Part shown: piece after piece, positions 47,301-54,139 of the stretch
Numbering within the stretch: the stretch's first letter is position 1
Layout: the number at the start of each line of letters is the position of its first letter
Source of the DNA: Camelus ferus
Lineage: Eukaryota
NCBI RefSeq assembly: GCF_009834535.1
Contig: NC_045696.1
Span: 1,240,001-1,304,000, forward strand
DNA: 64,000 bases
Direction: 5' to 3'
Translations under genes and position numbers: made by a program
The notes under the pieces: model-generated
Database searches by the model: none
Told to the model about the DNA's origin: nothing
Seen by the model: the letters and a program-made list of their open reading frames with translations, nothing else

Positions 47301-47748
47301 CAGGTGTGGGCGCCGGGGTGCTCGTGGAGGGCCCTGGTGCCCCTAGCCTTTCTGACACGTGCTCCCCACTGCTGTGGCCCAGCCTCTGCCTGGACAGCCT
47401 CCGGAGCCTCAGTCCTGCTGGGCTCAGTCCCTGACCCAGAGTTGGGTTTCAGCCGCTGCCTGGCCAGCCTCACCCAGCCTGCACCTGGGACTTCACACGA
47501 GGCCCCAAGGGAGGGCACCGCTGAGCTGGGCAAGGTGCCAGGGCCCTGACCGCCCCTCCGGGCCGGGCTGTACCCTGCAGCCTTGGGCGGGCTTCCCAGC
47601 GACCACAGGAGCGGCGCGCTCAAGGAGAGGCCACCGGGCAGCTGGACTTACCAGGAAGCACCTGTGCTGAGGACACAGGAGGAAGGAGGTCAGATCCTGT
47701 CTAAAAGCATTATTGAGACACGCCAGGTTTGCGAGCGGCTTTCCTCAC

Positions 47749-48689
47749 CTGTGGTAAATGTAACTGAAGGCCTTCGCTGGGGATGGGCTGGCGAGACGGG
47801 GTCTGGTCCAAGTGCAAGTTAAAGACAGTCGCCAGGGCAGACTGCGCGGCCCGGGCCTTGGCCAGCTTTTTGTTCCTCCCCGAGCCCTCGAAGAACTGAC
47901 CGTCCACCACCACGGACATGACAAAGTTCTTGGCGTGGCTCTCCCCGCTCTCCGACAGGAAGTCGTACTTCAGTCCCGGGCGCAGCTCGTTCAAGATCAT
48001 CACGGGGTTCTTCCCGCTCGGGGGTGGGAAGGGCGGGGGTATGGGCAGCGGGGGCTGGGCCAGGCCGGCGGGCACGGGGGACGCGGACAGGCTGAGGTCC
48101 CCGCTGGAGCTGAAGGAGTCGTCGCCGTTGGAGCCCAGGTAGAAGGGCGCGTCCGACCTGTCCGGGGTCTCGAAGCCGTTGAAGAGGGCGTCGGGGAAGT
48201 CGGCCTGGTCGGACGTGAAGTCCGTGTTGGCAGACAGGGTCCGGCCCATGGCCAGGTGGGCCTCGGAGGCGTTGGGGAACTGCACAAAGGACCGCAGCGC
48301 CTTCTCGGCCGCGTGCAGCTTGGCCTTCTTCTTGGTGGGGCCGGAGCCCTCGAACACCTGTCCGTTGACCTCGACGGACATGACGAACAGGGGCGCGTGC
48401 ACGGGCCCCGTCTGCGACAGCAGCGTGTACTGCAGGCCGGGCTTGATCTCGTTGAGCTGCATCAGCGCGTTCTTGGGCAGCGCCGGCCCTGGCGCCCTCC
48501 TCCGCTTCTTCAGGCGGAACTTGGCGTGGCCGTTGCTGCCCTCCTCCAGGGGCCGCTTCCTGCCGCCGCCCCCGCCGCCCCCGCCGCCCCCGTTGGAGAG
48601 AGGGGCACCCTCGCCCGGCCCCGGGGCGCTGCCGTCCGCGGGGGGCGCGCCGTCCAGACCGCAGTTTTCCTTAACATCTGTGCTCGAAC
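47749..48689 (-). CDS. ADARB1: ADAR2 coding exon 2: N-terminal basic/NLS region, dsRBD1 and dsRBD2
   Basis: Acceptor CACCGCAG|GTTCG, donor CCACAG|GTGAGG, 941 nt. Encodes [10 protein letters not shown]...[16 protein letters not shown] and [10 protein letters not shown]...[16 protein letters not shown] (KKxAK motifs). Confidence 0.99.
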
Positions 48690-48738
48690 CTGCGGTGCCC
48701 AGAAAGAGTAACTTACAACGCCTTCGTTGCAGGATCTT
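48690..48738 (-). promoter_or_regulatory. ADARB1: Editing-created proximal 3' splice acceptor (AA to AI; edited A at 48737) plus the 47-nt cassette 48690-48736
   Basis: TTTTGCATTTACAA|GATCCTGCAACGAAGGCGTTGTAAGTTACTCTTTCTGGGCACCGCAG|: exactly 47 nt between the AA and the normal acceptor, the established ADAR2 self-editing arrangement. Confidence 0.95.
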
Positions 48739-50170
48739 GTAAATGCAAAATTTATAGATTCCTTCATCTGTCTTTGTAACTGGTCAAGTGATGTGTGCTC
48801 ATGCACTCCCCCCGGCGGCCACTCCCCCCAGAAGCCAGCTAAGCTGAAAGGAGGAAGCTGATGTCTTGCTAAACAGTGCCTAACGCTGGCTCTGTTGAGT
48901 GTCGCCAACTGCTTTTGCATTAAAAGATGGATTTTTAAATGATCTTTTTCTATGAGAATATTCAGAAGCATCTAGAGACTTTATGCCAGTTTATCAAAAT
49001 GTGGGATAATAAATTGATCCCGAAACCCTGCATTAGTAAGTCTAGCATCAGTGCTGATACACGTGCGCTTTCCTTTCGCATTTCCCTCCTTTGCGAAGCC
49101 CTTTTCTCTCAGACTGTACTCACACGGGGCTTTCCACTACAGCACGCCCCAGAAAAGAAACAACATCTAAAACATGCATTCACAAGCTAATGTCTTTCTC
49201 TGGTTTAAAATATTCAATCAGCATGTGCAGTTATTTGATTTAGTTCATGGATCAATCTTAGAAAACTGCTTATGTGATTATGTAAAGTGTTCTGGCCTTT
49301 TAGAAGCTACTTTTGAAGGATCTAGCTTCACTTCTAGTGAAGTGAACTTTCTCACTTAGGATTTTTTCATTATGTATGGGGGTTGACTCACCTCCGAATA
49401 GTTAATACACTCCACGATAGAAAAAATACAGAAGACACGAAAACTGGAGTGTTTAGGACTTCCTAACTTTCTGACTACAGCTGGCAATTTTGTCTTTTGA
49501 AGGGTATTTGTTTTTTACAATCAATAAAGATAATTTCAGAACTCTGAAAGTTCATGGCAAAATAAGTATGATTTTAATTTCAAAAACTTAACTCCTTTAA
49601 GTTTATCAAACTTTTAAAAAAAGGAACGAATTCCTTGCCTCTGGTTAGTCCGCGTGGGGGGCCGTCTGCCCGTGAGCGCGGGGGCACGGATCCCGGACCT
49701 CACAATGTTGCTGATGTGAAAGTATTTAAAGACCTGGCTTTCAAAAATCCGCAGTAAATCTTTAATCAACCAAAATATTTTTTACAATTGTAGACTAATT
49801 TACAAGTTACCACCACCATGTGGTGGCTCTAGGGTCTACTTCTACTGCAGAAATAAAAGAAGATTCTCTCTCATCAAGTGAAGGAAACTGGAACACTTTG
49901 GTGAAAATGCTCGTCAGCTGTACCCAGGGGAGGGCGGGCTTAACGCGACAGGAAGCCTGTCAGGGCCATCAGCTGCCCAGGCCCAGGGCTGGTTAAAGTG
50001 CCCTGGCTTCCAGGGCTGTCGCTGCTCAGCTGAGAGGCACAGAAAAACCCTGGGCCAAGCACCCACCATGGGAAAGCTGAGTCCACGCTGCATCAGAGAC
50101 TAGGAGACTGACAAGCTTTCTCTGCGGACTTCGTTCCTCCCCAGCCCTCCTGACACACACACCACTTCTC

Positions 50171-50259
50171 CCAGTTGACAAAGCTGATGGAATGGACACT
50201 AAATTTTCATTTATAACATCCTCCAGCAAAAGCTCAATAGGTTACTCCTTTCGGTGCTC
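50171..50259 (-). promoter_or_regulatory. ADARB1: Editing-complementary sequence (ECS) pairing with ~48695-48783
   Basis: The plus strand here (CCAGTTGACAAAG...TAAATTTTCATTTATAACATCCT...GGTTACTCCTTTC) mirrors the minus strand at the acceptor (CCAGTTACAAAG...TAAATTTTGCATTTACAAGATCCT...AGTTACTCTTTC), forming an imperfect inverted repeat with a ~1.39-kb loop. Confidence 0.93.
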
Positions 50260-50794
50260 AAAGGAAACAAAAAGTTAAAAAGGGCAGAGCAAGACAGAAT
50301 TTAGATTAGCAAACAAGCAGGAACACCACGCACTAGACGAGAGCTCATGTCCCGATGTCGCTGAAACATCGGCAGCGGAAAGCGCATCGCTGTAAGTATG
50401 TTCTGACGTGCATTTAATCAAATGTTTGTAATCCCTGAAACACATGCTTTCCTTTAAGTAAAAATAATCAGCACTGACTGACAAAGGATCTTGAGATTAT
50501 AGAGAAATACACTTTCTATTATGCACAGTTCACATGAATTCCAAGTTCTTATTTGCTCCAGAAGCTCACATTCTACCTTATTTAAATGCTTCTATGCCAA
50601 GGAAGATAAAATACAGAACTGGACAAAGACACCCCACCATCACAGCTCTTCTTAAGCAGGAGCCTTCTCCTCACAGACCACGCTAATTTACTTCACAGAT
50701 GCGGATATTAACCACGACAAAATATTTCATTGCTTTCAAAATGAGAAGATACAGGCCAGGCATTTCAGCTGCAGCCCTGGAACCAGCAGCTTAC

Positions 50795-50933
50795 CTTTCC
50801 AGAAACCTCATGCGGAAGGATTCTCTACCGAGGTCACTTACCAGCAGGTCGCCCTGGAGATGGTTACACCATCTGCACACCGTGAAGCTTCCACCCAGAC
50901 CATGACCCCCACCACGGACAGCAGCCCACAGGC
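50795..50933 (-). other. Candidate cassette exon in intron 1 with two donors (92 nt ending 50842; 139 nt ending 50795)
   Basis: Acceptor CTCCTCCTTTCTGTCAG|GCC; donors CTG|GTAAGT and AAG|GTAAGC. No transcript evidence is available. Confidence 0.5.
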
Positions 50934-52013
50934 CTGACAGAAAGGAGGAGCAGTGCTGGGTGAACTGGGACTGGTGGGGGGGCTGGTCCTGAAGAGCCCA
51001 AGAGGAGCTCTGCCCCTGGGGGGGCGCCCAGCACATGCTGGCAGGGGCGCGGCCTCAGGCCCGAAGCTGCACCTGCTCAAGGCTCCCAGCGCCGTGTCCC
51101 AGGGATGGGCTCCGGCCGGAGGGCGCAGTACGGTGCGGGCCCCTGACAAAGGCCCAGCAGCTGCAGCACATGGCTCGCGGCGGCCCGCCAGGCGGCACGC
51201 TCTCCCGGGGAAGTGGGCTATGTGTGCAGATCAGCGCCTGCAGGGCCTCCGCTGCTGTGTTTGGGGTGAGGCCACAGGGAAAGGGACTGAGCTGCGTCCT
51301 GGTCCCCGAGGACACGCTCAGTAAAATGTCACCTGTCCTTCACACCCGCACGCTCTTCCCGGGGACAGCCCAGCACGCACGTGCACAATCAGAGCCCTGG
51401 TGCCCCTGCCGTGCTGCCCCCACCAAACGCCCCCGCCCCTGAGGCAGCACCGACTCCTTCCCTGACTGCTCTGCCATCCAGGCCTAGAGGCGGAGCAGGG
51501 GAGCCCGTCCACGGAACTTTCCACAGAGAGCTATGTCGAGGGGAAGCTGAGGCCCTCTGTCCGCTCTGCCCCAGGGGGGACAGGGAGTTTCAGGCCACAC
51601 CAGCCCTAAGGCTCATTAAGTCTTCAGAAACTTAAGATCTGCAGACTCACGTGGGCCCTTTCCCTCAAAACGCAGGGACAACCCAGCGTATTTGAAGGGA
51701 AATGCTTACGTACTGTTATCCCACATGCCCAACCTCACGGCCATGGTAGACACACATGGGAGAAAGCCGGCTGCTACTGTGGGGACCGCGCGTGACTTAG
51801 CGGGAGGCACGCGCATCGTGGCCCCGGCCGATGACAAGGGCGAGTACCCCCGACAAGCGGCCGTGAGGGAACGCCCACAGCAGACACCAGCCCGAAGCGG
51901 ACACACACCACTGTAAGCAGCCTGTGTCACACTGGCCCTGCTAAACACGCTCACACACTGAGACTTGCCCAGGAGACCAGCGCTCGGGACCACGTGGCGG
52001 GCCGAGGTCTTAC

Positions 52014-52041
52014 TCATGTTCTCTCCATCTTCCAGGTCCAT
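52014..52041 (-). CDS. ADARB1: ADAR2 coding exon 1 (MDLEDGENM + A); whole exon 52014-52088
   Basis: Minus strand: TCTTTCAG|ACAGAAAC...CTTGCCATGGAC (strong Kozak)...AACATGA|GTAAGA; phase 1 donor. Confidence 0.95.
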
Positions 52042-54139
52042 GGCAAGGAGCTTCTGAGGGCTTCTTGACTGGCGGAGGCTGTTTCTGTCTGAAAGACAGC
52101 AAGAACACAGCACTGAGCCCTGAGTGACACGAGGTAGGTCCCCTTCCGTGGAAAGCTGCTCAGACAAGGGCGGGTGGGTCCGGCCTCCGGACTGGGCGAC
52201 TGGTAGCTCCTCCCCCTTGTGCGTGGTCAGGACCCGGGGTCCTGGCCAGGCCCCTGCTGCAGCAGGGAGGACTTCAGGGCGCTGCAGAGAGCGGCCTGCT
52301 CCCCAGGGGTGGCGGCCGTGCAGAGCTCCGAGCCAGGGGAAGGCGATGCCCTGTGCATCTCAGAAAGACGCCCCAGGACGGAGCCCAGACCGCCAGCCAC
52401 TTGCCGACCTGGGTGCTGGGGAGACTGGGGTGGGTTATAAAGTAAAGCTACTGAGCAGGAAGAAACAGGTACCGTGGTCACTCTGCCTCTCAGCCTCAGC
52501 GGCGTCTCATGGACAAAACTAAAACGCATAGAATTTTTAAAATCTGATCCAACTTCTTAGCCACATACAACCTATTTTGTTGGCAGGAGAACCACAGGAA
52601 ACCCTCAGAGAACAATTATTCCAGTTATTTCATTATTAACAAATTAAAGAGTTTCCTCTTTCTAAATACTCCGGCCGTTCTTTGCAGGACCGCACTAGCA
52701 CGCGACCTGCGGTGCAGGACCCCATCAGACTGCCGAGTTCTGCAGGCACATGCTGCTCTGCACGCAAGCTAGGTTTATATTGTAAATCACTAAAAACCAG
52801 TGATTTATAATAAACGGTGACGAGAATGTGTTAAAACGTGCATGTATCTGAAACAGCTTTCTCACATAACGGACATCTAAGACACAGTTTTCATGACAAC
52901 CGTGTGTTAGTAACACTAATTCTCACTGTATAGTTGGCAGACTCGTTGCTAAAAGCTTAATGAGTTTCTATTTAGAATCCTTTATTCAGGGAAGTGTTCC
53001 AGACGTTTTAAAAGCATTAACATTTTGTACTTGTGAGTTACTCCAAGGTGTAGTTTCTGAAAATCTATTACACAAAGCACAGAACTGCTTACCAAGGGAC
53101 CTGAAGGGAATCAGACAGGCTCGGGGAGATTCAAGTGTTGTGCGGGGAACTGGCTGTACTAAGGGGTTGTTTTCAGTCCTTGCCGGCGTGGAGACAGCAC
53201 GTCTCTTCCAGGGACACACACTGGCAGGGACACACACAGAGACGCTCGCGGACGGGACGGTCCTTGGGTCTCGTCATCACAGACTGCAGGGCGGAGGAGC
53301 GGCCAAGGTGCCCCGGCTGGCACCTGCTGACGCCGGCTGACGGTGCGCGGGGCTCACGGAGCCACCCGTACTGGTGTGCTTTGGCGTCTCCATTATGGAA
53401 GGTGTCATGAAGCTCGCTTCCTCCAGGTCTGAACGGAGGTAGGACGTGGGCACAGTGCCAGGCCACCGCACGCCCTCGGGAAGACGCAGGTGCTTGAGGG
53501 GCCTCTCGGCTGGAGGGTCGGGGGGGGAACGTGGCATGTGGTGGTCAGCCTGAGCCTGGAGGAGAGGTCGGGTGGGAGGCGAAGACCAGAAGCGGGTGGC
53601 GTGGGGCAAGCGCAGAGGCTGTGTGAGACGGGCACTCACGACGCAGCTCCGGGAAACACAAAGTACTGGTTCTGGAAGCAGCCACACGAAACGGTCCGAA
53701 GCCCTCCGCTCGTACCGGCTGGAAGCCGGGCTTACAGGCGGCGAGAGGGGCTCGTGGCGGGGCTGGGGGCGGGGCACGGAGCGCATCCTTTCCCTGCCTG
53801 CTGGGTGCAGCTGAGAACCCCGATGTGGCAGGCACAGCGCACACGGGGAGGCGCTGAGCGGTGAAGGGACCGAGGCCGCGTGGCGGAGAGTCCCCTGCAG
53901 CCTCCCTCTGCATCGCCATCCCAGACTCGGAGCTGAAGAAGCCGGCTACCCGGAAACACCAACGGATGGACCAGAAAACCCTGACAGAAGTGCTCTCTCT
54001 GTCCCAGGGAGTCAGAAGGGACCTCCCAGCAGGCTAGGGAATCGGCAGACCCCATCTCCCACCCAGCACGGACGTGGGGGCCCTGGCTCTCACTCCCACG
54101 GGGCTGTGAGGACCTCTTCCCTCCCACTCACAAAGCACA

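Follow-up and report, generated by a model that had tools for sequence, protein, structure and literature searches.

An exon-like element in intron 1 of the Camelus ferus ADARB1 gene, probably a pseudo-exon, whose reading frame is compensated by the ADAR2 self-editing cassette

Self-editing of ADAR2, the textbook case of an editing-created splice site, is interpreted purely as negative feedback. The ADARB1 (ADAR2) gene is a minus-strand gene whose 5' and central parts are carried by the window, the whole stretch of 64,000 nucleotides of Camelus ferus DNA analysed here. An earlier sequence-only reading of this DNA drew attention to a stretch of intron 1 that could be spliced in as an exon, and proposed that its inclusion would make self-editing a requirement for enzyme production, a hypothetical inverted feedback loop. 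The question raised by this locus is whether the element is an exon, and whether its frame relation to the self-editing cassette is more than a coincidence.

The identity of the gene is clear from its exons. The translation of exon 2 shows 100% identity over 314 residues to the Camelus dromedarius model P0020, and at least five coding exons follow exon 2 within the window. The last base of exon 1 is 52014, where the phase is 1 and the donor (TGA/GTAAGA) agrees with the consensus at 5/9 positions. The features of the gene and of its self-editing module are as follows.

52014..52041, minus strand: coding part of ADAR2 exon 1 (ATG at 52041-52039; the open reading frame reads ...LLAMDLEDGENMS and matches P0020)
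47749..48689, minus strand: ADAR2 exon 2, 941 nt (acceptor CAG/GT, donor CAG/GTGAGG)
~44396, 42440, 41620, 40422, 33905 and 17241-16015, minus strand: later coding exons, placed by sequence match to gene models
48690..48736, minus strand: 47-nt cassette, preceded by AA and used with the edited acceptor
48737, minus strand: adenosine of the -1 site (AA/G at 48738-48736), which editing would convert into an AI acceptor, paired in the predicted duplex
50132..50279, minus strand: sequence complementary to the editing site, forming the duplex's 5' arm, recognised by inverted repeat, by fold and by 80% identity to a distant vertebrate contig

Several details of the ADAR2 models can be recorded here. 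Residue 6 (52024-52026, minus strand) is glycine in this genome (MDLEDGENM) and glutamate in the dromedary model, as in all other mammalian models with an exon 1. A run of 10 consecutive glycines in exon 2 (48560-48600, minus strand), encoded by a GGC/GGG repeat, is the same in the dromedary model, while cetacean and ruminant models have 2 to 5. The dromedary model P0020 begins with an N-terminal extension of 134 residues, which maps to 52003-52290 (minus strand), continuous with and upstream of exon 1, with a second piece near 53400-53540 (minus strand; interval 53373-53540). This extension does not resemble the exon-0 R-domain form so much as an annotated upstream exon or read-through. The whale, porpoise and goat models (P0027, P0025 and P0043) omit exon 33905-33720 (minus strand), so that the downstream exons (17241-16015) are read frame-shifted and the proteins end in a long non-homologous C-terminus. 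The skipping may be a recurrent isoform or a recurrent annotation artefact; P0027, as an exon-skipping and frame-shifted isoform, was dropped as the basis for the canonical protein length.

The -1 site takes its identity from Rueter et al. 1999, as that work is described in the consulted part of PMC2694175. An inverted-repeat scan returned a 50-nt arm pair at 72% (48703-48752 with 50201-50250), and in a two-strand fold 50279-50132 paired with 48823-48670 through 114 pairs at -111.1 kcal/mol. Followed upstream from exon 2, the frame has no stop in the cassette or in the roughly 16 codons preceding it (48690-48783, minus strand). The peptide of this frame hardly differs between fish and mammals among genomic ORFs and gene models (P0001-P0023, P0044, P0046 and P0047), and such a vertebrate-wide open frame is a by-product of nucleotide-level conservation of the duplex. 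In two fish NCBI models, P0018 and P0019, the arginine-rich motif of exon 0 is fused in frame with an exon 2 extended upstream across the cassette; their read-through may reflect real transcripts or artefacts of model building.

The element itself lies in intron 1, more than 500 nt upstream of the 5' duplex arm. Both arms stay within the intron downstream of it, and the proposal that its inclusion need not remove the editing duplex is upheld by this geometry. Its features are the following.

50795..50933, minus strand: candidate 139-nt exon, stop-free in the exon 1 frame within an open reading frame at 50791..51054
50842..50933, minus strand: alternative 92-nt form, ending at the inner donor CTG/GTAAGT
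50934..50965, minus strand: candidate 3' splice-site region, with a branch-point-like TTCAC, a pyrimidine tract and CAG/G
50901..50903, minus strand: internal ATG in the context GTCATGG, in the ADAR2 frame only via the 92-nt form and the edited acceptor

One acceptor and two donors, defining exons of 92 and 139 nt, had been claimed for the element, and all three are present in the DNA. The candidate acceptor (...CTCCTCCTTTCTGTCAG/G, first exon base 50933) has 15/17 pyrimidines, and each donor agrees with the consensus at 8/9 positions: AAG/GTAAGC for the 139-nt form (last exon base 50795) and CTG/GTAAGT for the 92-nt form (last exon base 50842). A TTCAC read by eye about 28 nt upstream of the acceptor could be the branch point. 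Six verified ADAR2 exons were scored in the same way; at four of them the acceptor consistent with the exon boundary has 11-14/17 pyrimidines, at the remaining two the nearest candidate acceptors score 7-9, and the consensus is matched by the donors at 6-8/9 positions. The core signals of the element thus equal or exceed those of verified exons of the same gene, making it exon-like at least to the same degree. Among 24 sequencing runs listed, the RNA-labelled contig sets contained 75-86% of the words sampled from 47700-52300, a range that takes in the intron, and since these sets also contain intron 1 their content is uninformative on splicing.

The splice combinations below were translated by script, with the outcomes given.

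Exon 1 joined to exon 2: open, 323 codons
Exon 1, cassette and exon 2: stop at codon 85, as in the truncation already known
Exon 1, 139-nt form and exon 2: a stop within exon 2, at codon 62
Exon 1, 139-nt form, cassette and exon 2: open, 385 codons (+62)
Exon 1, 92-nt form and exon 2: stop at codon 100, inside exon 2
Exon 1, 92-nt form, cassette and exon 2: stop at codon 48

These translations agree with what had been read from the sequence alone. The 139-nt form is indeed free of stops in the exon 1 frame. The prediction that it would act as a poison exon when joined to the normal acceptor of exon 2 is sound as logic, the stop at codon 62 arising if the exon is included, and the predicted restoration of the frame with 62 extra residues through the edited acceptor is confirmed by 385 codons against 323. 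Translation likewise supports the statement that the GTCATGG start codon of the 92-nt form is in frame solely through the edited acceptor. From the ATG at 50903, the normal acceptor leads to a stop at codon 27 and the 139-nt donor to a stop at codon 22. A premature stop at codon 62 is far 5' of the later exon junctions, and a transcript that included the exon would consequently be a substrate for nonsense-mediated decay (NMD). The signals, the frames and the geometry of the locus are all directly observed.

Searches for the peptide of the element at several scales gave no relevant match. The 45-residue translation of the element, compared with longer proteins, returned 13 candidates, none at E<=1, and the 87-residue ORF across the element, compared with proteins of similar length, returned one candidate and nothing relevant. 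An exhaustive HMMER scan with the 87-residue ORF against 1.84 billion representatives gave 6 low-complexity hits; five of these report a matched stretch, which covers query residues 5-42, is essentially intronic and includes none of the exon part. Across three large protein searches the exon peptide was absent from homologous proteins. These negatives are weak with respect to isoforms, because insertion variants can cluster under a canonical representative.

A 61-residue query spanning the cassette matched 47 proteins. Among these matches the cassette is read through in fish models and in unannotated genomic ORFs. All 23 of the 23 mammalian ADAR2 models (from camel, cetaceans, ruminants and a lemur, with one entry of cetacean-type sequence) enter the exon 2 residues from exon 1 or another upstream piece, with both the cassette and the element absent. 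Taken at the level of annotation, these comparisons show that the reading of element plus cassette has been adopted by no gene model anywhere.

Conservation was examined at the nucleotide level as well. An exact 22-base cassette pattern had no matches in metagenome_contigs and genome_contigs, and scanning metagenome contigs at the protein level, with the exon 2 ORF as query, gave 6 loci. Three of these (L001, L002 and L003) were set against the window; L004-L006, which are partial and at 56-65% identity, were left out. L001, a contig from a distant vertebrate, is the only one of those compared that extends upstream of the cassette. It aligns over exon 2 and the cassette (48800-47744, 73%) and over the duplex arm (50260-50155, 80%), and gives no alignment at 50795-50933. 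Because L001 aligns at the module and is blank at the element, the element lies outside the deeply conserved editing module. Taken with the unmatched peptide and the cassette-free mammalian models, this tilts the indirect evidence against a coding exon in use.

The local properties of the element were also considered. The region is single copy both in the window and in the 2.09-Gb assembly, which rules out an origin as a repeat fragment, and Rfam gave no family match within the window. A stable local RNA structure around the element was rejected (fold z = +1.0), as was a CpG-island promoter (CpG observed/expected 0.27). Two short inverted repeats bracket the candidate acceptor or overlap it (50898-50914/50972-50988, 17 nt, 82%; 49957-49976/50921-50940, 20 nt, 75%), and since the fold is no more stable than that of shuffles they are probably due to chance. 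Exonic G-runs are commonly silencers. Their density is 2.9-4.4 per 100 nt in the element, 3.2 in the upstream flanking intron, 0.9 in exon 3, 1.8 in exon 4 and 2.1 in exon 2; the element is thus closer to the flanking intron than to exons 3 and 4, a weak indicator.

How often such an element would arise by chance was estimated with pairs consisting of an acceptor with at least 14 pyrimidines and a donor of at least 8/9, spaced 50-250 nt apart. The sense strand of the 64-kb window contains 65 such acceptors and 29 donors, forming 7 pairs from 5 acceptors, and two of the seven belong to a true exon, 42440-42272. At the same stringency a single pair occurs on the antisense strand. In 200 first-order Markov resamplings with 500-nt blocks, the mean was 2.4 pairs, at least one pair fell in the intron-1 interval in 11% of runs, and in 0.5% (1/200) such a pair had, in addition, a length of 1 mod 3 and no stop in the incoming frame. 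The Markov model undercounts real sites (44 acceptors against 65, and 22 donors against 29), and the whole 64 kb had been screened for oddities, so these statistics are suggestive rather than decisive; they suggest that the element is unusual, but not compelling. Since openness of the cassette is universal in vertebrates, the sole extra coincidence is a length of 1 mod 3 together with 46 stop-free codons.

The explanation that we consider probable is that the element is an unannotated pseudo-exon of intron 1, normally skipped or rarely included, whose frame compensation is coincidental. The core signals that a spliceosome needs are all present, and normal transcripts would skip the element or include it rarely. 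A rare inclusion with the normal acceptor would bring the stop at codon 62 and yield an NMD substrate, while inclusion with the edited acceptor would restore the frame. With the cassette open in all vertebrates, any stop-free upstream exon of 1 mod 3 compensates, and the compensation is for this reason best read as coincidence. Both the rarity of inclusion and the absence of selection on the compensation are what we infer from this pattern. The pseudo-exon is favoured by the lack of a peptide match, by the cassette-free mammalian models, by the blank alignment of L001 at the element and by the intron-like G-runs, and further by the unremarkable fold and the low CpG. It also accords with a human RT-PCR study using primers in exons 1 and 2, the consulted part of which reports no forms other than those that include or lack the 47 nt (PMC4030101), and with two reviews (PMC2694175 and PMC9479739) whose consulted sections describe no such exon besides mouse exon 1b. 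Against it stand the strength of the signals, the small number of pairs in the window, the 1/200 frequency in the Markov control and the single copy of the region, as well as the mouse exon 1b described in PMC2694175, the MATR3-repressed human exon of bioRxiv 10.1101/2023.12.07.570685 (both as given in the portions of these sources used here) and the weakness of protein searches for isoforms. The element is thus most likely a pseudo-exon that normal transcripts skip; at most it would be a minor poison exon of the kind reported as mouse exon 1b.

The main rival is a genuine regulated poison exon, one that depends on tissue or condition and lowers ADAR2 through NMD, with the frame compensation again incidental. 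In its favour are the strong acceptor and pair of strong donors, and the stop that the normal acceptor brings at codon 62. Precedents exist in mouse exon 1b (PMC2694175) and in the human MATR3 exon (bioRxiv 10.1101/2023.12.07.570685), and the pyrimidine-rich tract upstream of the element fits the motif that the consulted part of the latter reports 5' of MATR3-repressed exons, but no similarity is seen at the element in the one distant vertebrate contig, and we regard this possibility as rather unlikely. That the element is an editing-gated rescue exon, giving through the edited acceptor a full-length ADAR2 in which 62 extra residues follow residue 9, and thereby a positive feedback, is very unlikely, even though the frame arithmetic is exact and open over 385 codons, both duplex arms lie within the downstream intron, and a strong pair with the frame property occurred in only 0.5% of Markov runs. 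Most rodent-brain transcripts are reported to bear the 47 nt, going by the section of PMC2694175 consulted, so that transcripts containing the exon would there be mostly frame-restored. Against this, the mammalian proteins and models lack the peptide and none reads the cassette in frame, the 46-residue peptide has no homologue in the protein searches, the open cassette frame follows throughout vertebrates from conservation of the duplex, and the mechanism is not described in the literature searched. A positive-feedback branch lying above the classical negative loop, acting on some of the ADARB1 transcripts of camelids, and perhaps of further mammals, is accordingly highly improbable. Transcription could instead start in intron 1 and make the element an alternative first exon, running from the ATG at 50903 through the 92-nt donor to the edited acceptor. 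Positions -3 and +4 of this ATG are both G, and its frame crosses the cassette into exon 2 without a stop; however, a CpG observed/expected of 0.27 is unlike a CpG-island promoter, and the frame stops at codon 27 with the normal acceptor and at codon 22 with the 139-nt donor, making this origin extremely doubtful.

A rescue exon, if true, would make the edited acceptor the productive one and change the view of ADAR2 dosage control, and it would show frame restoration by editing occurring in nature. Such a natural rescue was not described in the literature searched on ADARB1 poison or cryptic exons, NMD and self-editing isoforms. At present the element is a well-formed exon-like sequence only, and it offers a specific and cheap target for camelid and mammalian RNA-seq.

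Four known features of the ADAR2 gene bear comparison with the element. The system of Rueter et al. 1999, in which self-editing at the -1 site leads to inclusion of the 47 nt (as related in the consulted parts of PMC2694175, PMC5852575 and PMC9479739), is the same here in its gene, its cassette (48736-48690), its duplex and its truncation (stop at codon 85). The difference is that the Rueter loop is a negative feedback, whereas the candidate exon would flip the sign, and on including transcripts only. Exon 0, which encodes the R-domain (Maas and Gommans 2009, PMC2626628), resembles the candidate in being an optional 5' exon that alters the N-terminus of ADAR2. As far as the consulted portion of that paper goes, it differs in lying about 18 kb upstream of exon 1, beyond the window, in being conserved from fish to human, in encoding a recognisable arginine-rich motif, and in extending the frame without editing, unlike the candidate.

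Other optional 5' sequences are known as well. Human exon 1a adds 28 residues ahead of the start codon (Slavov and Gardiner 2002, Gene 299:83, as cited in the part of PMC2694175 used here). The cryptic exon that MATR3 represses in human ADARB1 introduces a stop (bioRxiv 10.1101/2023.12.07.570685, in the part consulted), and, compared by description only, it is like the candidate in its premature stop and in the pyrimidine-rich sequence upstream of it. Mouse exon 1b is reported to lie between exons 1 and 2, and its inclusion to cause a frameshift and truncation (PMC2694175, citing Slavov and Gardiner 2002); its methionine has been proposed as an alternative start (PMC2694175). The candidate, again compared by description only, shares with it the character of an optional 5' exon, the truncating frameshift and the internal methionine. 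In the candidate, unlike the account of mouse exon 1b, the ATG is in frame only via the edited acceptor, and the consulted text of the review names no combination with the 47 nt. On the descriptions available in that review, nothing known comes closer than mouse exon 1b to the element in intron 1 of the Camelus ferus gene.
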